This document shows, in pieces, positions 3,260-56,039 of a stretch of 64,000 nt of DNA (positions within the stretch are counted from its first letter, which is position 1; every line of letters begins with the position of its first letter). Location: assembly GCA_951406725.2 (NCBI GenBank), contig OX597819.1:13578001-13642000 (forward strand). Reading direction: 5' to 3'. The position numbers were made by a program, and so were the translations under genes. The notes beneath the pieces are model-generated. The model ran no database searches. It was not told where the DNA came from and was given only the letters and a program-made list of their open reading frames with translations. The DNA is from Octopus vulgaris (Eukaryota).

Positions 3260-3295
3260 CTTTCTGTAGAAGAGCGTAGGCTCGAAACGTAAAAG
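3260..3295 (+). ncRNA. Hammerhead-like motif with A6U core, inside a short repeat (about 3215-3390)
   Basis: CUUU-CUGUAGA-a-GAGC(guag)GCUC-GAAA-CG-UA-AAAG. Confidence 0.6.
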
Positions 3296-22739: not shown

Positions 22740-23462
22740 AAAAGAAGGATAGGCATTCTGGTGTCAGTTGGTATGGAAAGGGTTGTCAAAAGAAGGATAG
22801 GCATTCTGGTGTCAGTTGGTATGAAAAGGGCTGTCAAAAGAAGGATAGGCATTCTGGTGTCAGTTGGTATGAAAAGGGCTGTCAAAAGAAGGATAGGCAT
22901 TCTGGTGTCAGTTGGTATGGAAAGGGCTGTCAAAAGAAGGATACGCATTCTGGTGTCAGTTGGTATGAAAAGGGCTGTCAAAAGAAGGATACGCATTCTG
23001 GTGTCAGTTGGTATGGAAAGGGTTGTCAAAAGAAGGATAGGCATTCTGGTGTCAGTTGGTATGAAAAGGGCTGTCAAAAGAAGGATAGGCATTCTGGTGT
23101 CAGTTGGTATGAAAAGGGCTGTCAAAAGAAGGATAGGCATTCTGGTGTCAGTTGGTATGAAAAGGGCTGTCAAAAGAAGGATAGGCATTCTGGTGTCAGT
23201 TGGTATGGAAAGGGCTGTCAAAAGAAGGATAGGCATTCTGGTGTCAGTTGGTATGAAAAGGGCTGTCAAAAGAAGGATAGGCATTCTGGTGTCAGTTGGT
23301 ATGAAAAGGGCTGTCAAAAGAAGGATAGGCATTCTGGTGTCAGTTGGTATGGAAAGGGCTGTCAAAAGAAGGATAGGCATTCTGGTGTCAGTTGGTATGA
23401 AAAGGGCTGTCAAAAGAAGGATAGGCATTCTGGTGTCAGTTGGTATGGAAAGGGTTGTCAAA
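22740..23462. repeat. Minisatellite, 15 x 48 bp
   Basis: Unit aaaagaaggataggcattctggtgtcagttggtatg(g/a)aaaggg(c/t)tgtc; three variable sites. Confidence 0.95.
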
Positions 23463-24327
23463 ATGCTGTTTTTATTCAAAGGATTCCAGCTTTCTAAAGT
23501 CTGGAAGTCATTTAGCAATAGTCTTTGTAACACACTTAGTCACTTGTTAACTATTTAGTATGTCGTCAATGTATGGATATTATTGATGTAGCACTATACT
23601 GTGTGTGTGTGTGTGTGTGTATACTGTGGATGAGTGTTGTGTTGTGAATGTCTGGCCAGTCAGTGACAGCCACTACGAAGCCCCTTCAAAATGGTTTAGC
23701 CATCTCTCATCCTTCTTTAATTACCGCTTGAAGTAAAATGATCCAAAGAATATTACAATGAACTTTTGCTCATAGATTCTATCTTTTGAATGTTTTTATA
23801 TATATATTTTCTTATATATTTCAACAATACAATTAATTAACTTTAATTAATGGTATTTAATTGATTTAGCCGTTAAGAATTAAGACTAGTTCCAGATAGA
23901 TTTCCTGTGAATGTTGCCTGTGATATCCAGGAGATTTATCTCTCGATCACCAAATGCACGTGGACCCAATACTAAGTACCGGCTCTGATCAGCTTCTTTG
24001 AAACTCTTTAAAGCCATTTATTTTATAGTAAAACAAGCGAGAGAGGGAAACCTAGGCTTTGCTTGAGCCATGTACATATTGGCTGGACATCTCACTTTTC
24101 AGTCTTCATTTGCTTGTAATCATTGTAAATAAAGAGTTTATTTCTTAAGACATGTTTTTATTGACCGTCTGAAGTAAGTGTTGCTGGTAAAACTTGATGG
24201 TCAGCGCTGACGTTGACCACTGTGCCTTGTACTCGCTTGGGAAACATTACACACTGTTCTCAATATGGGATTACTCTTGCCCTGTTATTCTCTTGGCCAA
24301 AATACACACACAGACATGTATGTGTGT

Positions 24328-24612: not shown

Positions 24613-24662
<50 letters not shown>

Positions 24663-24754
24663 GGGAGAATTCACAAAAAACAAAAACAAAAGACGAAGAC
24701 AGGTGGTGTAGACAACAAAAAGATGTATTAGTATAACACTCGGGAATTGAAAGA

Positions 24755-24790
24755 CTTTAACATTTCGAGCCTGCGCTCTTCCACAGAAAG
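24755..24790 (-). ncRNA. Second A6U hammerhead-like motif, inside repeat at about 24660-24835
   Basis: CUUU-CUGUGGA-a-GAGC(gcag)GCUC-GAAA-UG-UU-AAAG; same family as 3260. Confidence 0.55.
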
Positions 24791-25479
24791 AAACAAGGAG
24801 AGAAAACAAATGTGTGTAGTGGTTAGCGATCTATCATATATATATATATATATATATGATTTAAAAATCTTCAAATACCCGAGTGACTGGCACCATAAAC
24901 TAGAACCTCCTATAAAGCGAAGTCTATTTTTAAACTAGTTTTTCGGTTCCAGTGGAAGCTAAGTTATTTTACAAATGTCTTTAAGAAGGTCATGTCTCAC
25001 AGTTTCATTTATCTCTTCTTATATATTTCTAACCTTGTAATTAAAGCCAGACAATATACTCAAGGCCAAATTTTAAATAGCTTTTATTTTCCTCTCATAT
25101 TTTCTTTTTCCCTGCAAGTTAAACGTTTTAAAATATATTTTGGTATTTCAAAAGTATTGGGTGAAAAGATCTCCCAACTAATTTAATTTTATTGATGTTA
25201 CAACTCAGAACTTTTCCATTCGTTCCTTTTAAGCTGACCAAAACCTTAGCCAGTCTCTGTTTTCTGAGACCGTTGTTTTATGTTGACATGTTACTGTTTG
25301 GAAGAAGTCTTAGTCTGCCGTAGCTGTCTCTCGTCGCCCCAGGGAGCGGTTTCAGTATTAATAAAGAGTTTTTAGTCAAAATACATTCTTATGGTTCTCT
25401 CTCTGTTTAATCTTTTTGGTTTCTTTTACGGGATTCAGTCATTGTGGTGCAGCTAGGCTGTCACACCAGCTTCAAAGGC

Positions 25480-25835
25480 CTCACACAATCAGAGGACTGA
25501 GTCAGAGCCTGCGAGGTGCTGTTTGATCATTGAATGTTGGTATAAAGTTTATGAAGAATGTCATAACAGGCGATGAAACTTAGATATCTGTCTGCGATGT
25601 GGAAACAGAATGGTAGTCGTCGCGATGATTTCGATAATCGTCGCCAGGGCTGCAAAAGAAAAGAAGGAAAGCAAATAGATAATGTTGATCGTCTGTTTTT
25701 TTCTTTTTCATTGGAAGGGCGTTGTTCATCATGAGTTAAATCTACGTGGTCAGATGATAAAGAATTTTACTTGGATGTCGGGAGTTATTTGTGAAGGGGC
25801 GGTTGAAAGGAAGAAGTTTGAGATGAGAACACACA
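25480..25835 (+). mobile_element. Mariner transposase internal relic
   Basis: NVITGDET*IS..GVVHHE..KEFYLDV motifs with stops and frameshifts. Confidence 0.7.
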
Positions 25836-25836
25836 A

Positions 25837-27199
25837 TGAACGCATTCTGCGGGAATAACACAGGTTCAATCGATTCTTATTGGTCATGTGGAGCTTCGCA
25901 GTGTGCATTTGCAGCTGCTGTTAGTACCATCAAGTAACGGGGAAAGGAGGTGCAACTAGTGTAAATCTGAAAAATTCCACATCCCAAAATACCCACTAAA
26001 ATCACTGTACACACGATCTAAGATATATATCGACCATATATCAGTTCATGTGTGACTCCTCCGGGTCTCTTTAATAAGGCATAAGACGACTGTCGACCTC
26101 CAGCCGTCCTACTGTTTGGGTTTGGTCCCTGAAGCGTCACTAATTTCTGACGAATGATGAGATCAAAGAAAATTCCCTACGAGAGATATGCACTACCCAT
26201 GAATACAAGTCCTCAAACTGGGAAAAACGTTGGCAGTGGTTTAATAACAGCGGAGGGAAGGAGACTTGTCTGATTACATTGTTAATACAGCAACAATGTG
26301 GAGGCGCAATGGCCCAGTGGTTAGGGCAGCGGACTCGCGGTTTCGATTCCCAGACCGGGCGTTGTGAGTGTTTATTGAGCGAAAACACCTAAAAAGCTCC
26401 ACGAGGCTCCGGCAGGGGATGGTGGTGATCCCTGCTGTACTCTTTCACCACAACTTTCTCTCACTCTTCCTGTTTCTGTTGTACCTGTATTTCAAAGGGC
26501 CGGCCTTGTCACTCTCTGTGTCACGCTGAATATCCCCGAGAACTACGTAAAGGGTACACGTGCCTGTGGAGTGCTCAGCCACTTACACGTTAATTTCACG
26601 AGCAGGCTGTTCCGTTGATCGGATCAACCGGAACCCTCGTCGTCGTAACCGACGGAGTGCTTCCAAAAATACAGCAACAAATTTATTTTTAGTTTAGTTT
26701 TGTTTTGGACAGATTTCGTTGCATATCCCTGTACGTGATCTGTCCAAAATGAAACCAAACTTTACAAGTTTTCTTTAAAGAAATTTTAGACTTCAATATC
26801 TACAAAACTGCCTATAGTCTTTTGAGGCGATGTCTATTAGTACATGTTGGATAAGTTCTTATTGGTCAAGTGTGGCAAGGACATACACTAACGGGTGTTA
26901 ATTTACTGCTCTTGTACAGGGGAGAGTGCTGCGGTCGGTTGGTTTCCAACAAGGACTCCTTTGGATGTGAAAAAAACTTTGCAGAAGAAATCTCCCTATG
27001 ATGAGAGTGATATCTTAGAGCGTGTGTACAGTGATTTTAGTGGGTATTTTGGGATGTGGAATTTTTCAGATTTACACTAGTTGCACCTCCTTTCCCCGTT
27101 ACTTGATGGTACTAACAGCAGCTGCAAATGCACACTGCGAAGCTCCACATGACCAATAAGAATCGATTGAACCTGTGTTATTCCCGCAGAATGCGTTCA
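25837..27199. repeat. 190-bp inverted repeat pair (25837-26026 / 27010-27199)
   Basis: Direct comparison; one mismatch seen near the inner end. Confidence 0.9.
26298..26665 (+). mobile_element. SINE family B with TSD
   Basis: TSD aatacagcaacaa. Confidence 0.9.
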
Positions 27200-29360
27200 G
27201 TGCATCGTTACTTGAAAATCCCTACTTAGTAGGGAACATAGAACGACAGAGTGAGACCTCAATTGTTTACTCCAAATATTGAATACTCTTTCGGCTGTAA
27301 CCAAAAACACCTGGTCGGAAACTATCAACGAATCGGGGACACAAAGCTGAAGATTCTCTTCATTCCCTCTGTGAATACTATTCAAACAGATCGGTGCTAT
27401 GCACCACATAAAAAAAAAAAAAAGAAAGAAAAACCCAGAATGTGTTGGAAAGTCTTCTTCCCCGAGAAAGGATTCCTAAAATCCCGGTAGATACGTAGGG
27501 ATAGTGAACACGAAAATCCTCCCCACCAACAAAGGTACTTGAACATTTCGAGTCCAATTTTCTGCATATTGATAGGAAAAGTAAGATTCTAATATTCCAC
27601 CGAAACCGCCTGAACAATCACACAACAGCCACACAGTTGCAAAGAAAATAAAGAGTAGATGCGAGCTGGAGAATGGCACATACTCTCCTGCCAAACGATA
27701 TTAAAACATTAAAAATGCCTGCTCATGATGTTGTATGCTGCCAGTACCATAAATAAGCAAAAGAGCAGTGTCCTAATTAAAAATAGACTGCATTGAGCGC
27801 TTTGTCGTGCGTACATCCTACATTGATTAACTCTAAAGACTATAAAGATCCGGGTTATGTATCCAACACTGATGTTAGTTTTGTAAACCCCGCCTAGGAA
27901 ATGATTTGGGTTTAATTAGCGAGCTTATAGTGGATAGGATTTCATGAAAAACTAGAAACGTGACGAGATTAACACAGTGAAACTACATGATGAATGCTAT
28001 GTTGTAGTCCAGTAGAGTAGAATACAAGACACTCAGTGAAGTCATCCTGTTCTATAGAATGTATATAGACTTAAGAATGTCTAAAGCTCTCTGAATAGCT
28101 CTGGAGAGCTTAATAACCTTGATACCAGGAATATACTGAACGCCAAGAAACCGAGAGTACCTCCGTGGTTAAAATGAAGGACGCCCTATATTCAACATTT
28201 CCAAGAAAATATCTTGAGTTTTACACTAGAAAATATCTTGCCTTTCATACTAGAAATCTCCCAAAGCAAATCAAAAGAAACGAGCCACTTCTATGGCTCT
28301 GAGCGCTGGAGACGACGATTGGACAATTTCCTCCGGTGTAAAAGAGTACAGCGTGGATAGACTCATAAAAGACCTGGTGCAAGTATATAAGGAATGGATG
28401 GAAGCACTCCGTCGGTTACGACGATGAGGGTTCCGGTTGATCCGAATCAACGGAACAGCCTGCTCGTGAAATTAACGTGTAAGTGGCTGAGCACTCCACA
28501 GACACGTGCACCCTTAACGTGACATGGCCGGCCCCTTGAAATACAGGTACAACAGAAACAGGAAGTAAGAGTGAGAGAAAGTTATGGTGAAAGAGTACAG
28601 TAGGGATCACCACCATCCCCTGCCGGAGCCCTGTGGAGTTTTTAGGTATTTTCGCTCACAACGCCCGGTCTGGGAATCGAAACCGCGATCCTATGACCGC
28701 GAGTCCGCTGCCCTAACCACTGGGCCATTGCGCCTCCACATATATAAGGAATACAAAATGAACCACACCATTAACAATAGCTTTTGAATAGTTAACTTCT
28801 GAGACATTATACTGTATCTGACAGCAAGTAAATATCACCTCTCTATAAATCTAAATGAGAAAATCATAAACATAAGCAAAAACTCCCTTCTCTGTCTAGT
28901 CATAATAAAGAACAGATAACATAAGTACCACAATTTCCGTCCTACCGTCTGCAATGAGCATTTTCAACTGTACAACGCCCTGAGATGTGGCTTTACTGAA
29001 AAGAAAGCGTTGAAGGATCGCTTCAATATAAAAACAGAACAAGGAAGAGAAAAATATTTTAGTTTAATTCACCCTACGACAACCGAACTCGGAACTTCCT
29101 ACGACTTTTAAAAAAAATTCCCAACAATACATTGCAAAATATCTTAAACTGCTCACTTAGATTATCCTGCAGTGGAGCAGCCATAATACTTGCTTATGGT
29201 ACCAAGAAGAATTATACGGGACTCACCTTTTAAGATCAGATACAATCAACACATACATCTATTTAGGTTAGAGAATGAAGAAGTTCTACTTCATTTCCAC
29301 AATACGTCTGAGCATTTAAGGATAGTGGAGCTGAAAGTGTTTCTCTAACTTAGAACATCG
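27200..29360 (+). mobile_element. Penelope-like retroelement relic (RT plus GIY-YIG endonuclease)
   Basis: With frameshifts: TLKDYK..VSFVNPA/RNDLGLIS (about 27830-27920) and KNYTGLT/FKIRYNQHIHLFR (about 29208-29267). Confidence 0.65.
28398..28740 (-). mobile_element. SINE family B inserted in the Penelope relic
   Basis: TSD tatataaggaat. Confidence 0.9.
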
Positions 29361-33565: not shown

Positions 33566-34291
33566 CTCATAATTGACTCGTGATCTCATAATTGACTCGT
33601 GTAAAAACGAGAATTATAGAATTCTTTTTTTGGAGCCCCGGATTGCGGATGCAGGAATGCGTGCAAGTTGCAAGAAAATTACTCGGGGAAGGACTGTAGA
33701 GGTTTATCGCCCCGGATTGCGGATGCAGGAATGCGTGCAAGTTGCAAGAAAATTACTCGGGGAAGGACTGTAGAGGTTTATCGCCCCGGATTGCGGATGC
33801 AGGAATGCGTGCAAGTTGCAAGAAAATTACTCGGGGAAGGACTGTAGAGGTTTATCGCCCCGGATTGCGGATGCAGGAATGCGTGCAAGTTGCAAGAAAA
33901 TTACTCGGGGAAGGACTGTAGAGGTTTATCGCCCCGGATTGCGGATGCAGGAATGCGTGCAAGTTGCAAGAAAATTACTCGGGGAAGGACTGTAGAGGTT
34001 TATCGCCCCGGATTGCGGATGCAGGAATGCGTGCAAGTTGCAAGAAAATTACTCGGGGAAGGACTGTAGAGGTTTATCGCCTCCAATTTGTGTATAATTT
34101 GTGTTTTATAATTGTATTGTATTTTAAATTGTAAGAGGGTTAATACGTCAGTATATGCGTTTTTAAAGAACAATTTTTTAGAGAAGCAGGAGGTCAGTGG
34201 GCGCTTTCTGTCTTCTCCCATCTTCATCATTTTTGTATCATAATCATTCGCCTTATCTATGTGCTACCTACATGGCAAATTTAATGAATAA
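33566..34291 (+). mobile_element. Retroposed ~725-bp insertion with 14-bp TSD
   Basis: aagtagcttgctta (33552-33565) / aagtagtttgctta (34292-34305); ends aatgaataaa. Confidence 0.7.
33637..34080. repeat. Tandem array, 6 x 74 bp, identical units
   Basis: Unit cccggattgcggatgcagg...gtagaggtttatcgc starts at 33637, 33711, 33785, 33859, 33933, 34007. Confidence 0.95.
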
Positions 34292-40660: not shown

Positions 40661-41231
40661 TCAGGTCATCCCATAAGTTCTGTCCGAAGTTTGAATAAAG
40701 AAAACAAACGATCAAATGTTATATTTAATTGAAATTTAATCATTAATGTACGTTCCTTGATTATCTATGACTTCCTTCCATCTATTTACAAGCTTTTTGA
40801 TCCCATCAATGTAAAACTCTTTTGGTTTCAAAGCGAAGAACTCTGAAATGTCAGTTTCGACCTCCTCCTTGGCTTGTGAAAGTTATGTCCCCAAAATGAT
40901 TCTGTAAACTACGAAACAAATGGTAGTGTGAAGGAGCAAGGCCGGAAGAATAAGGTGGATGAGGAATTTTTCCCAACCAAGCTCTTCGATCTTCTGTCAT
41001 GTGATCTTTGCAGCGTGGGGTCGCGCATTGTCCTGATGAAACATCACTCCTTTTCGATTCACTAAAGCGGGTCTTTTTTTTCTTCAAAGCTTGGTTCAAA
41101 CGCTCTAATTGCTGACAGTAGACTTGAGTATTCATTGCTGCATTAGGTGGTAACAATTCGAAGTGAATTACTCCTTTGCAATCCCACCAGCTAGAAAATT
41201 CTTCTTTTAATTTCGTTCGCTGTGGATCCAA
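40661..41231 (-). mobile_element. Mariner 3' half with one TIR
   Basis: WWDCKGVIHFELLP..YCQQLERL..PHPPYSSGLAPSHYHLFRSLQ; TA then tcaggtcatcccataagttctgtccg. Confidence 0.85.
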
Positions 41232-41621
41232 TATATTCTTTATTATTAATATTGTTATTATTATTAGAGGTTACTATACATTTATAAATTACGTTATCTA
41301 GATTGCAATTATTATTAAGTCTGCATTTGGATTTGTCTTTATATGTGCATTTATTTAAAATACGGTTATGTTTATTGTTTGTGATGGTTCTGCTGTAGCA
41401 ATGGTTAATATTAGTTAAATTATTATTATAAAATTTGTTTAATTTGAAATTGTTTATTGGGGATATAATATTACTTACATTCCTTGTTGTAGAATATTGG
41501 AGAATATTTTCGAGTACGTATTGTTCTTTTTAAAGGATGTTTTTATTATGTTCAAAATTTCTTTAATAATATTAGTTTTAATTTGGGCCCCATAAGGGAT
41601 AATTAGGCATATAATTTCCTG

Positions 41622-48448: not shown

Positions 48449-48514
<66 letters not shown>

Positions 48515-48517
<3 letters not shown>

Positions 48518-48780
48518 GTGTAATAAATAAAATATATGCATACATACATAGATATATGTACGTACCTACATCTACATGTATATATACATGCATATATAAA
48601 TATATAAATACGTGAGTACAGGACACCACAAATAGACGAGAAACGAAAACGGAAAAACAAGCATGGAACAGACCATTTTTTTACAACGAAAAACAGAGTA
48701 CAAGACAAAGACAAACTACGCAAGGAAAAATCCCCTTCATCAGCTGTCCCTAGGTCAACTCCAGCGTGTTTCGAAGGTGA
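48515..48780 (-). repeat. Penelope-type short repeat, inverted copy of about 55652-55925
   Basis: caggacaccacaaatagacg..aaatccccttcatcagc..gtttcgaaggtga shared. Confidence 0.75.
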
Positions 48781-50406: not shown

Positions 50407-50791
50407 GTGGAGGCGCAATGGCCCAGTGCTTAGGGCAGCGGACACGCGGTCGTAGGATCGCGGTTTCGATTCCCAGACCGGGCGTTGTGAGTGTTTATTG
50501 AGCGAAAACACCTAAAAGCTCCACGAGGCTCCGGCAGGGGATGGTGGTGATCCCTGGTGTACTCTTTCACCACAACTTTCTCTCACTCTTACTTCCTGTT
50601 TCTGTTGTACTTGTATTTCAAAGGGCCGGCCTCGTCCTATTCTGTGTCACGCTGAATATCCCCGAGAACTACGTTAAGGGTGCACGTGTCTGTGGAGTGC
50701 TCAGCCACTTACACGTTAATTTCACGAGCAGGCTGTTCCGTTGATCGGATCAACCGGAACCCTCATCGTCGTAACCGACGGAGTGCTTCCA
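50407..50791 (+). mobile_element. SINE family B
   Basis: TSD actgcctaa. Confidence 0.9.
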
Positions 50792-51032
50792 CCACTGCCT
50801 AAACTTCGCCTGCAAAATACAAATGGTTCATATGTTTTTTTATTTTATAGTTATCGAAACCTCATTTTCATGGATGGTACGTCAAGTATATGTCTATGCA
50901 ACGTTGACATTTTTTTTTAACAAAATGCATGAATTTTAATAAAATAAAGGAATACTTTTTCTCTCCTCAAGGTTTTTGAATTCATTCAACCACCCATTTG
51001 AAGATGGAATTAATGGAAGCTCACTTAGGGGA

Positions 51033-51416
51033 GGAAGCACTCCGTTGGTTACGACGACGAGGGTTCCGGTTGATCCGGATCAACGGAACAGCCTGCTCGT
51101 GAAATTAACGTGTAAGTGGCTGAGCACTCCACAGACACGTGCACCCTTAACGTAGTTCTCGGGGATATTCAGCGTGACACAGAGAGTGACAAGGCCGGCC
51201 CCTTGAAATACAGGTACAACAGAAACAGGAAGTAAGAGTGAGAGAAAGTTGTGGTGAAAGAGTACAGCAGGGATCACCACCATCCCCTGCCGGAGCCTCG
51301 TGGAGCTTTAGGTGTTTTCGCTCAATAAACACTCACAGCACCCGGTCTGGGAATCGAAACCGCGATCCTATGACCGCGAGTCCGCTGCCCTAACCACTGG
51401 GCCATTGCGCCTCCAC
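51033..51416 (-). mobile_element. SINE family B
   Basis: TSD ggaagctcac. Confidence 0.9.
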
Positions 51417-52434: not shown

Positions 52435-53310
52435 TTGGGTTGTCCGGAAAGTTCGTGCCGATTTATAGTAGCTTACCTTTCGACTTATTTTAGAACATGG
52501 TTGTGTCCATAAAATAGGATTTGACTACACCTCCATTTAGAGCACAGTTTAAGCTATCTTTTCGTGGAAGAAGGTTTATGTTCCTATAACCTGTGTTAAT
52601 TCTGTAACCCTTTAAAATGGAAGATAAGAAAGTTCATTTTCGGCACTTGATGCTTTTCTTTTTCCGTAAAGGGAAAAATGCCTCACAAGCAACCAAAGAA
52701 ATATGCGCAGTTTACGGTGACGTTTCTTTATTCGAAAGAACTGTACGGAAGTGGTTCGCAAGGTTCCGAACTGGAGATTGTAGCCTTATTGATAAAGAGC
52801 GATCAGGCAGACCATCTACTACAGATGATGACCAAATCAAGTCATTAATTGAGAATAACCCCCATTGCACAACCCGAGAACTAGACGAGTTAAAAGCAAC
52901 AATTCCAGAATTGGCCAACAGGAAGGGTGTTTTCCAACATGATAATGCAAGACCGCACGTTTCTTTGGGGACCAGACAAAAATTGCTGCAGCTTGGCTGG
53001 GATGTGTTACCCCACCCTTCATATTCACCAGATATTGCTCCTTCGGATTTCCACTTATTCAGGTTTCTGCAGAATAGTCTTAATGGTAAAAATTTCAATT
53101 CCTTGGATGACGTAAAAAGATACCTTGATGGATTCTTTGCGATGAAGCCACCTCAATTCTGGGAAGAGGGTATTTTCAAGTTGAAGGAAAGATGGAGATG
53201 CATTGTGCAACAAAATGGTTCATATTTGGTTGATTAAAAATGTAATGGCAAGTATTTATTGACCTTTTTCTTTCCTTTAAAAATCGGCACGAACTTTCCG
53301 GACAAACCAA
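52435..53310 (+). mobile_element. Mariner element with both TIRs and TA duplication
   Basis: ttgggttgtccggaaagttcgtgccgattt / aaatcggcacgaactttccggacaaaccaa; TA on both sides. Confidence 0.95.
52617..53237 (+). pseudogene. Mariner transposase, 206 aa, in-frame internal deletion
   Basis: N-terminal HTH (RTVRKWFARFR..ERSGRP), HDNARPH and YSPDIAPSD present; WVPH and TGDE region absent. Confidence 0.85.
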
Positions 53311-54252
53311 TAGTCAGTTTGAAGATGTTTGGGAACATCAACTTCTATCTCTTTCATTTTGGAAAACAATTTCTGGTATTCGAGGCAATATACACTTGCG
53401 TCATATGTCTCACAAGACTGTTTTTAGTTGTTTTTTTCCTCGAAAGAAGTGACTCTTCTACATTTGTACCAAGTCAGAACATCTATCGAGCGGCATTCGT
53501 ATCTGGTGCTCCCCCCTGATCATACGTATGGCATACAAATTGTTCCAAATGAGAAACCAGGTCGTTAAAAATGGAACTGAAAATGTACAAAACCTTTGAA
53601 AGCATGGATGCAGCGCTCATGTTTGATCATTAATTTGAAATTTCATCTTAGCTATCATTTAAACCCACTTAACAAATCACAGCTGGCGAATGGACGGAAT
53701 CCACCCAGTGCTGACGCAACATAAAAATGATGTTGTGAAAAGTGCGGACTATGTCACTTCGACCAGTATGGAAGGGAGGAGGTGCCGTAATCTTGTGTGA
53801 ACGTCCTATGCTGATTATGCGCACAGCAGTATCCATAGTGTTTATAACCACAACTGATGTGGATGTCAATAGTGTTGACCAGTGAAAATCTTTCTGAATA
53901 TGTTCTGCTTGTAAAAGTAGCCGAGTCTTCTTCCTGTCCTATATGACGAGAAAGGAGTTCCGAAATAAGTACCGCCTTCACCACAAGATGGTTCCTTGAA
54001 AATGCTTGGCAGTCTTTCTCATGTACAAAACACATTCTTGGGCACAGTTGGTGCGAAGTTGTGCCAAAAACAAACAAACAAACAAACCAAACCAATAGCT
54101 ATTCCACAAATTACCGGCTGGCGGTCGTCTACAAGAGACGCTCCTCGAGACGAAGACCGCTGTTTAGAAGGCTTTCAACAGTATATATACTTTAAGTATG
54201 ATATACAGATTGCTGATTTGAACTACTACTGCTTCCGTTGCTGCTGCTGCTT

Positions 54253-54321
<69 letters not shown>

Positions 54322-54324
54322 CAC

Positions 54325-54383
<59 letters not shown>

Positions 54384-54574
54384 AATATAAGAGAGCTCAC
54401 TATGTGCTCACTCTAGCACTACAAAAGGTTTCAACCACAAAAATACATGTTTCCCATGAAACTACGATTGTTAGCTCACACGAACAGGGCAAATAAAAAA
54501 TAACAAAAATACAGATTATTTTGGGACAATTGTTTACTATTAATGAATTAAATGTAATTTTACTCAAAAAACTT

Positions 54575-54618
<44 letters not shown>

Positions 54619-54742
54619 ATAATATCAGGGTAATAAAGATTTTAGAAGTTTTTACTACCCGTGGCCTAACGTATAGAAAAATTAGTCAATAGACTATATA
54701 TTATTCATATAAAATACAGTGAAAAATAAAAATATTTACCAT

Positions 54743-54810
54743 CTGGACCATGGTTTCTGACTTATTTTAGTAAATTTAATAATCTACTAGGCGAAGTCTT
54801 CTTCAACAGG
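54743..54810 (-). ncRNA. Hammerhead-like motif, U3.G8 core
   Basis: cCUG-UUGAAGA-aGAC..GUCa-GAAA-CCAUGG-UC-CAG. Confidence 0.6.
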
Positions 54811-55301
54811 TACGCCAAGATTGAAGAAGACTTCACATAGTAAATTATTTTATTTGCTAAAATACGTCAGAAACCATGGTCCAGGAAAGAGATGGTAAAT
54901 GTTTTTATTTTTCCTTCCCTTCGAGAATTTATCCCTAATTATTTGTTTGGACTTTAGCTGTTCTTTCTAGCGTAAAGGATTCCTTTCATGGAAACCTCTT
55001 GATGTGTTTAAATATACACTTTATTTTATATGAATAATATATAGTCTATTGACTAATTTTTCTAAACGCTAGGCAACTGGTAGTAAAAATTTCTAAAATC
55101 TTTATTACCCTGATATTATTAATTATGTATAATGATTTCTGGAAGATTCGTTCGAAAAAATTGCCGGCATCTTTTTGCTGCCGACAAAAAACAAACAAAA
55201 AAAAAACTGCGCCTGCGCGGTGGATTTGAAAAAAATTAAAATGTATAAGCAAGAGGCACATGCTGGATTGACCACGTGTTTATATGTTTAATCTTGGCGT
55301 A

Positions 55302-55370
55302 CCTGTTGAAGAAGACTTCGCCTAGTAAATTATTTTATTTGCTAAAATACGTCAGAAACCATGGTCCAGG
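55302..55370 (+). ncRNA. Hammerhead-like motif, U3.G8 core, extended stem II, GUC triplet
   Basis: CCUG-UUGAAGA-aGAC..UAGUAAAU(uauuuu)AUUUGCUA..GUCa-GAAA-CCAUGG-UC-CAGG. Confidence 0.65.
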
Positions 55371-55998
55371 AAACAGATGGTAAATGTTTTTATTTTCCAT
55401 TCCCTTCGAGAATTTATTCCTAATTAGTCGTTTGAACGTTAGCTGTTCTTTCTAGCGTAAAGGATTCCTTTGATGGAAACCTCTTAATGTGTTTAAATGT
55501 ACACTGTCTTATATATATGTATTTGTTTTTAATTGTATTGTTTTTTACGTCCTGTTTTTGTCACATTTTTTTTCCTTGTTTTTTACCCCTCTGCAAAGGA
55601 ATTTTATTTAATTCTTTCGCAGGAAGGACTAGTTCGACGAGGCGTGTTCTGTCCTCACCTTCGAAACACGCTGGAGTTGAACTAGGGACGGCTGATGAAG
55701 GGGATTTTTCCTTGTGTAGTTGTCTTGTACTCTGTTTTTTCGTTGTTAAAGGAATGGTCCGTTCCATGCTGTTTTTACGTTTTCGTTTCTCGTTGAGTTC
55801 TACGTCTATTTGTGGTGTCCTGTACACGCGTATATATATTTATATATGCATGTCTATATACATGTAGATGTAGGTACGTACATATATGTTTGTATGTATG
55901 CATATATTTTATCTATTATACTATTGTATGACTGAGCGCCTTCGCGTCGATTCGATTCGATTCGTTTGGTTTCGTTTCGTTTCTTCTTCTTCTCTAAG

Positions 55999-56039
<41 letters not shown>

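Follow-up and report, generated by a model that had tools for sequence, protein, structure and literature searches.

Repeat content of the window and the PLE insertion

The 64-kb stretch of Octopus vulgaris DNA analysed here, hereafter the window, is repeat-rich animal DNA with microsatellites, SINE-like repeats and mariner remnants, the latter being Mos1-like transposase remnants, internally deleted or partial, at 52608-53234 (+), whose ORF has animal mariner relatives in a protein search, and at 40854-41270 (-). Further repeats comprise a long inverted pair of a dispersed repeat of about 385 nt (50407-51416; arms 95-97% complementary), a minisatellite with 15 copies of a 48-nt unit (22740-23463; 97%, three open frames), a second minisatellite with six 100% identical copies of a 74-nt unit (33635-34081) and 193-nt inverted repeats of 99% identity about 1 kb apart (25834-26026 and 27010-27202), which may be the termini of a young DNA transposon. 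For the ribozyme locus discussed below, no related copies were found among prokaryotic genome contigs, phages and plasmids, as expected for an animal repeat, and a bacterial promoter scan, irrelevant to animal DNA, gave chance level only. At least five ribozyme-bearing repeat families occur in the 64-kb window. Apart from the locus discussed below, a canonical C3-G8 type I hammerhead of another family lies at 59988-59911 (-), with a palindromic stem III, a GUA site and a long AU-rich stem II, while the hammerhead at 2820-2781 (-), again of type I and canonical in C3-G8, represents a third family; its stem III is palindromic and its stem II has a basal A.G mismatch. A minimal hammerhead with an A6U core variant is situated at 3264-3291 (+), a decayed relative of which is contained in 24614-24829 (-).

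The segment 54607-55516 is one non-autonomous, ORF-less insertion of a Penelope-like element (PLE) in a (TA)n target. Its left end is located inside (TA)18, the probable target being the (TA)n microsatellite at 54579-54615, and its right end in a TA-rich stretch. The inverted, 5'-truncated copy M (54607-54822, -) is joined 5' to 5', over a 2-nt TT overlap, to the first tandem unit P1 (54821-55305, +; 485 nt), which is followed by a second, partial tandem unit (55306-55516, +) that is 92% identical to 54821-55031, extends over only 211 nt and stops at 55516, 100 nt short of the end of M. Segment 55132-55290, inside the P1 unit, has no other copy in the window. M carries a 7-nt deletion right after the cleavage site and a 104-nt deletion further on; the latter was considered as an intron and rejected, as it has no GT-AG bounds. 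The PLE-like layout that a sequence-only reading of this DNA had proposed is borne out by these boundaries, with a partial tandem that has the inverted 5'-truncated copy on its 5' side, outer ends that differ and an AT-rich (TA)n target, an arrangement described for PLEs in Craig 2021 (PMC8557442). Canonical PLE insertions (Craig 2021 Fig. 2; Frangieh 2024, PMC11167929), share partial tandem, inverted 5'-truncated copy, unequal ends and AT-rich target, whereas the unit found here is non-coding and 485 nt long, and the end difference is about 100 nt as opposed to a tail of 30-40 nt.

Among the 74 reading-frame stretches scanned (70 from 50-62 kb and 4 others, out of 454 stop-to-stop frames of at least 55 aa), none gave an RT or GIY-YIG Pfam match, and 54607-55516 is therefore filed as a non-autonomous PLE derivative. 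Nicking of both strands of AT-rich DNA with internal initiation, as well as insertion of the anole PLE in vitro without ribozyme cleavage, are reported in Frangieh 2024 (PMC11167929). For the present insertion, we infer a helper RT/GIY-YIG protein which would nick both strands of the TA run and copy the element RNA twice, leaving a partial tandem fused 5' end to 5' end with an inverted 5'-truncated copy.

Three U3.G8 hammerheads in one insertion

A motif of the form TTGAAGA...GAAA CCATGG TC is present in three copies, and the three U3.G8 hammerheads claimed by the sequence-only reading are indeed situated where it had placed them. Copy P2, the complete type I hammerhead (55302-55370, +; U3 at 55306, C17 at 55366), was identified by descriptor and pairing test and consists of stem I (55302-55305/55367-55370; pairing test), the U3 core (55306-55312), a basal stem II with an A.A mismatch (55314-55316/55351-55353), an apical stem II (55323-55344), GAAA (55355-55358) and the palindrome (55358-55365). 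Copy M (-; descriptor and pairing test) has U3 at 54806, C17 at 54746 and the stem I 5' strand at 54809-54807, its stem I, next to the 7-nt deletion, being 3 bp, not 4 bp as in P2. Copy P1 (54821-54885, +; U3 54821, C17 54881) starts exactly at U3 and is devoid of the stem I 5' strand, as had been noticed before, with only 1 of 8 positions pairing with its own 3' strand, such that stem I is absent. The spacing between P1 and P2 of 485 nt likewise agrees with the earlier figure.

All three copies have in common, as already read from the letters, the stem III palindrome ACCATGGT and the GUC triplet, the latter being an NUH site, together with GAAA and A15.1-U16.1; each also carries an extra base (A) after A9, G10.1-C11.1, a two-part stem II and an extra A before GAAA. 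All core positions apart from 3-8 are intact, and at 3-8 U3 stands opposite G8 in each copy, a wobble instead of a Watson-Crick pair. Since U3 is common to all three copies, it would have been present in the template RNA already. Both variants of the apical stem II pair, as had been maintained; among the copies, stem II differs by two one-sided changes with 0 of 17 pairs altered on both sides, and covariation in stem II was consequently rejected. An alternative register, CUGUUGA, with C3 kept and A6U, was rejected as well, no register other than that with U3 allowing stem I to pair. M, P1 and P2 are 92-93% identical over their shared ungapped parts and, as duplicates of one sequence, count as one observation. 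The hammerhead part of P1 and P2 differs at 2 of 65 positions compared with 14 of 146 downstream, a non-significant hint of constraint (Fisher p 0.16). Splice-donor-like sites, recognized by eye, lie at 54894 and 55379 (+), 12 nt after the P1 and P2 cleavage sites.

A loose type I descriptor recognizes P2, M and two unrelated hammerheads, which makes four matches in the window, with 100 dinucleotide shuffles averaging 0.22; the strict version finds P2 and one unrelated hammerhead, two matches compared with 0.02 in the shuffles. Rfam gave no match in the window at the gathering score, and among its 22 matches at E<=10 in 54000-56000 there is no hammerhead family. With the PLE pseudo-LTR type I hammerheads (Cervera & de la Pena 2014, PMC4209133) and the Hydra-clade rows of Craig 2021 (PMC8557442), the window copies share type I order, a 4-bp stem I in the case of P2, the extra base after A9, G10.1-C11.1, the unpaired base before GAAA, the palindromic stem III, opposite-strand motif pairs close together and the (TA)n target. 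In the Hydra-clade table (Craig 2021 File S2), many rows have the 1x1 mismatch at the base of stem II that is also present here, palindromic stems III and a (TA)n preference occur as well, and all rows seen carry C3. Differences are U3.G8 in the place of C3-G8 or U3-A8, a long two-part stem II (41-nt insert), the missing ORF and one copy without stem I. The ribozyme of 54607-55516 can be described as a Hydra-clade-like type I hammerhead built to act as a dimer. Layout and PLE hammerheads of this kind are already well described and, on its own, the insertion is ordinary.

As judged by modelled pairing and folding, the locus is most likely crippled and unable to release a 485-nt unit, although the sequence-only reading had envisaged P1 and P2 as a double hammerhead with both sites cut and a unit RNA of about 485 nt released, possibly circular, which would make it retrozyme-like. 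The 485-nt spacing and the palindromic stem III, which is suited to dimer folding (duplex -11.2 kcal/mol), speak for such a release, as does the known cleavage of type I hammerheads as dimers, in which each site is cut by the stem-I/core strand of the partner, PLE hammerheads requiring the dimer and being of low activity (Cervera 2014, PMC4209133). Between P1 and the P2 site, however, 0 of 8 positions pair, while 4 bp can form between P2 and the P1 site; lacking the stem I 5' strand, P1 cannot cut P2, and at most 54881 would be cut. The U3.G8 core and the length of the second unit, 211 nt, also count against release, and the proposal is left unsupported and highly improbable. Animal non-LTR retrozymes require two complete motifs (Li 2026, 10.64898/2026.07.22.740005), have a unit of about 170-400 nt (Cervera 2020, PMC7229834) and are marked by abundant unit RNA, both linear and circular; they resemble the insertion as short non-coding tandem units with a type I hammerhead, AT-rich and PLE-related, whereas the latter has one complete plus-strand motif, P1 being incomplete, 1.4 units, a unit of 485 nt, which exceeds their range, and a non-canonical core. 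As monomers, the hammerhead folds lie 10.3 (P2) and 8.8 kcal/mol (M) above the ensemble. Upon plus-strand read-through, P1 folds back onto the inverted copy M, with 54600-55140 forming a single long hairpin of -261 kcal/mol over 541 nt, which raises the alternative that the main significance of the locus is to supply a long fold-back RNA, a small-RNA precursor; as this fold is the automatic consequence of any inverted PLE insertion, that role appears very improbable. That U3.G8 has become fixed in this PLE family as a variant which is functional, cleaving slowly, in trans or with the help of the element's protein, is unlikely, even though its presence in all three copies, and so in a mobilised RNA, an otherwise intact core, the A6U core variant of another family in the window and the protein-assisted cleavage shown for the anole PLE (Frangieh 2024, PMC11167929) would accord with it. 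Against it, C3 stands in the Hydra-clade rows seen, the natural 3-8 variation found reported is the Watson-Crick pair U3-A8 (Cervera 2014, PMC4209133; Perreault 2011), single mutants at 3 or 8 kill the anole PLE hammerhead (Frangieh 2024) and, as insertion in vitro needs no cleavage, a dead motif can be copied. In the literature searched, no account of U3.G8 hammerhead activity was found. The crippled reading of U3.G8 draws partly on what is known from hammerhead mutagenesis. Lunse is said to have described PLE hammerhead variants in 2017, which may already cover U3.G8.

A split-core hammerhead candidate and its probable Naiad relatives

Downstream follows a separate element (55517-55999, +) with TA-rich flanks and an inferred left boundary, which is interpreted as a fragment from the 3' end of a Naiad-type PLE, the Naiad link having been drawn by eye. 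Its second copy in the window (48510-48780, -) is 5'-truncated, starting at the linker before the stem II 3' strand, and does not include the cleavage-site block, such that only one complete motif copy occurs in the window; the extension 55930-55999 is absent from it. Because the second copy is not accompanied by U3 hammerheads, the Naiad-type element is separate from the PLE insertion 54607-55516. Nesting of this neighbour inside P2 was rejected, as the rest of P2 does not follow 55929.

Within the element, 70 nt downstream of the PLE insertion, 55586-55703 (+) holds an intact hammerhead core in a non-circular block order, a split-core, non-circularly permuted hammerhead candidate delineated by permutation scan, pairing test and folding. 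It is composed of helix IV (55586-55590/55699-55703), hairpin V (55591-55622), stem II (55623-55627/55658-55662; 5 Watson-Crick pairs), helix VI (55629-55638/55676-55685; 10 of 10 pairs), stem III (55641-55647/55666-55672), H17 = U55648 in a GUU triplet with the predicted cut after it, stem I (55649-55654/55686-55691), a 3-nt linker between the strands of stems I and II (55655-55657), GAAA (55663-55666) and CUGAUGA (55692-55698). The six helices I-VI pair at every position and all conserved core nucleotides are present, namely CUGAUGA, GAAA, A15.1-U16.1 and U as H17. The link between A9 and G10.1 is opened, G10.1 being placed 75 nt upstream of A9 and joined to it through helices IV and V. An acceptor-like pyrimidine tract with CAG at 55622 (+), seen by eye, ends just before G10.1.

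A scan of all six block orders gave 10 matches in the window, among which the motif at core 55692, with the order cleavage site, GAAA, CUGAUGA, has the longest stem I. Loose matches to each permutation order are common by chance (16-37 of 100 shuffles); stem lengths of I>=6, III>=5 and II>=4, a threshold set post hoc, were reached in 0 of 100 shuffles. With a looser split-core descriptor, designed after the motif had been seen, 55586-55703 is the sole match in the window, and 6 of 500 shuffles contained matches. The minimum free energy fold of 55585-55704 forms IV, V, VI and III at -45.3 against a shuffle mean of -32.5, with 0 of 300 shuffles as low, and in 55580-55706 the unpaired share is 73-89% for the core and for the strands that make up stems I and II. 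Rfam returned no match for the motif. The structure of 55586-55703 can be held with high confidence.

The non-circularly permuted types SGC and CSG (Eckert 2023, PMC10085705) are the closest in architecture, with the cleavage block followed by the GAAA block and then by CUGAnGA, a short linker between stems I and II, two pseudoknots and a helix which, placed where these two stems end on the outside, joins the end of stem III. Block order and short linker of 55586-55703 are those of type SGC, a 3-nt linker being typical of validated type-SGC ribozymes (Eckert 2023), and helix VI joins the outer ends of stems I and II. On the other hand, block C is broken at the A9/G10.1 link, an event that Eckert 2023 assumed to be impossible: the best stem II partner lies upstream (55623-55627), helix IV takes up the bases that follow the core, and the core is closed by two extra helices. 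The provenance is different as well, SGC having been obtained from metatranscriptomes and CSG from two metagenome sequences, whereas the present motif resides in an animal retrotransposon. Formally, joining the ends of a CSG chain and opening the resulting circle at the A9/G10.1 link gives the split-core form, helix VI being the outer helix of CSG and SGC. By its sequence, 55586-55703 is placed in the SGC/CSG/GCS class of non-circular permutation, opened at A9/G10.1 and putatively held together by IV and V, and it is predicted to act like type SGC without being filed as such. A first reading as plain SGC was replaced, as the helix IV fold and the Naiad records read by eye point to a split core; a GCS reading with a downstream site at 55819 was set aside, having stems of only 4+4 bp. 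No report of non-circular hammerheads from animal genomes was found in the literature searched, and the review PMC6155905 holds nothing on A9/10.1 insertions. Searches of mainly openly accessible literature returned nothing that links Naiad to hammerheads or permuted hammerheads to retrotransposons or octopus.

Naiads are reported, in Craig 2021 (PMC8557442), to be without canonical hammerheads, some having a core which fits no descriptor. The 3' ends in its supplement (File S5, 54 records) were parsed by eye in place of a computed alignment, records being reached only via chosen 7-mers unbroken by line ends. By this tally, 20 of the 54 records were parsed (11 split-core, 8 CSG, 1 SGC), and nine further passages did not parse: Skow-1, Adux, Skow-2, Scon (last lines only), four near parts 17-19 and one near part 17. 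The split-core layout, with unrelated letters in every helix, ends 11 records by eye, which are Bfor, one in the Clytia range, Amil, Aacu, Anas, Obim, Ovul, Esco, two near part 12 and one near part 19. Amil, Aacu and Anas are near-identical, as are Obim and Ovul, and the 11 records amount to about eight independent families: ctenophore, hydrozoan, coral, box-jelly range (two records), crustacean range (one), octopus and bobtail squid. Weak spots are a stem I of 2 bp in Bfor, a degenerate stem II in Esco and mismatches in I and II in Aacu. Type CSG was recognized by eye in Nbra-1, -2, -3 and Hpol, by header, and in four records in the nematode range, by file order, with stems I and II of 4-6 bp, a stem III of 6-12 bp and an outer helix; one record near part 17 shows, by eye, SGC order with an irregular stem II.

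The fragment 55517-55999 has in common with the Naiad clade (Craig 2021) the architecture of the 3'-end motif in those 11 consensus records, (TA)n flanks, 5'-truncated copies and a one-copy extension; cephalopod Naiads are listed with (TA)n in the supplement. It differs in having no ORF, Naiads being defined by an ORF with an N-terminal GIY-YIG, a CxC linker and RT, and so has no ORF link to Naiad; a further difference is its hammerhead core, Naiads having been reported as without canonical ones. Alongside the likeness in architecture, a 16-nt match to one clam record was found by eye. Since the window letters differ from Naiad_Obim and Naiad_Ovul, the fragment belongs to another family. A Naiad origin of 55517-55999 appears quite likely and, judging from the sequences, the Naiad motif family is probably catalytically active.

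If the candidate were instead a plain type SGC, stem II would engage the G run right after CUGAUGA, with helices IV and V being incidental. The blocks do stand in S-G-C order with a 3-nt linker, a rival stem II of 4 bp directly after the CUGAUGA core can form and HRIMA-1 commonly has an additional nucleotide behind the core, but the 5 Watson-Crick pairs formed with 55623-55627 are stronger than this rival stem and, read by eye, most Naiad records pair the post-core bases upstream, as helix IV, with the GAAA-side strand engaging the segment that directly follows hairpin V, which makes the plain form improbable. A structured but non-catalytic signal, for protein binding or RT initiation, or a decayed ribozyme, would account for the competing hairpin at 55685-55726 (+), which hides the stem I 5' strand and half of the core when the 3' flank is present, by taking this masking hairpin as the stable state. 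With the natural 3' flank added, the probability of helix IV is 0.0, and the hairpin, dominant in that setting, folds in the second copy also. That copy differs at 2 of 58 shared motif positions, one change being compatible with stem I and the other one expected to disrupt a pair of helix VI. To open the active scaffold, 16.2 kcal/mol are needed, roughly the amount that stems I and II could return by stacking, about 20 before loop costs. The GUU triplet, which is weaker than GUC or GUA, would also fit a loss of catalysis, as would the anole PLE, whose cleavage is dispensable in vitro and whose RNA-seq shows no cut ends according to Frangieh 2024 (PMC11167929). A complete core with the U-H site in its proper place and separate variation of stems I, II and III across phyla, features read by eye, would on the other hand be hard to keep without catalysis, and a non-catalytic role is unlikely.

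Proposed working of the split-core RNA and its meaning

The preferred reading, to which a probability of roughly 0.7 is assigned, is that two PLE-derived pieces share one (TA)n target, the non-autonomous insertion 54607-55516 with a crippled hammerhead and the Naiad-type 3' end 55517-55999 with a hammerhead of new connectivity. In the split-core candidate, the chain runs from the 5' strand of helix IV through hairpin V, the stem II 5' strand with G10.1, helix VI, the cleavage-site block, 3 nt, the GAAA block, the returning strand of VI and the stem I 5' strand with CUGAUGA to the 3' strand of IV. The nested helices III, IV, V and VI may fold first, into a rod which leaves both strands of I and II free, the loop of the rod carrying the 3' strands of I and II together with the site, and its basal multiloop the core and the 5' strands. 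Stems I and II would then dock as a double pseudoknot, either within one molecule, by a bend at the internal loop between III and VI, or with two copies in a tandem transcript engaging each other head-to-tail; the geometry of a monomer is not obvious for the split core, a caveat that applies equally to SGC. The cut after 55648 would trim the Naiad precursor RNA near the 3' repeat, and the downstream hairpin may hold the ribozyme off until a protein or a transcriptional pause steps in. On the scale of the clade, and with slightly less assurance, it is rather probable that the 3' ends of Naiads bear active non-circularly permuted hammerheads, which would be of type CSG in nematodes and of the split-core kind, a seventh topology, in ctenophores, cnidarians, arthropods and cephalopods, with 55586-55703 as a member that would dock by a double pseudoknot, possibly head-to-tail and hairpin-gated.

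If the split-core RNA cleaves, this would solve the puzzle of Naiads that keep a hammerhead core which fits no descriptor, and the argument that Naiad PLEs spread without ribozymes would fall. Non-circularly permuted ribozymes would thereby move from anonymous metatranscriptome contigs to a defined, high-copy family of animal retroelements, in which their function and evolution would be testable. The three-block rule behind the six possible permutations would be broken, implying that current genome scans miss a class, and the occurrence of CSG, SGC and the split core in one clade would provide a series for tracing the interconversion of permutations. The split-core RNA may be the ribozyme that Naiads were thought to lack.
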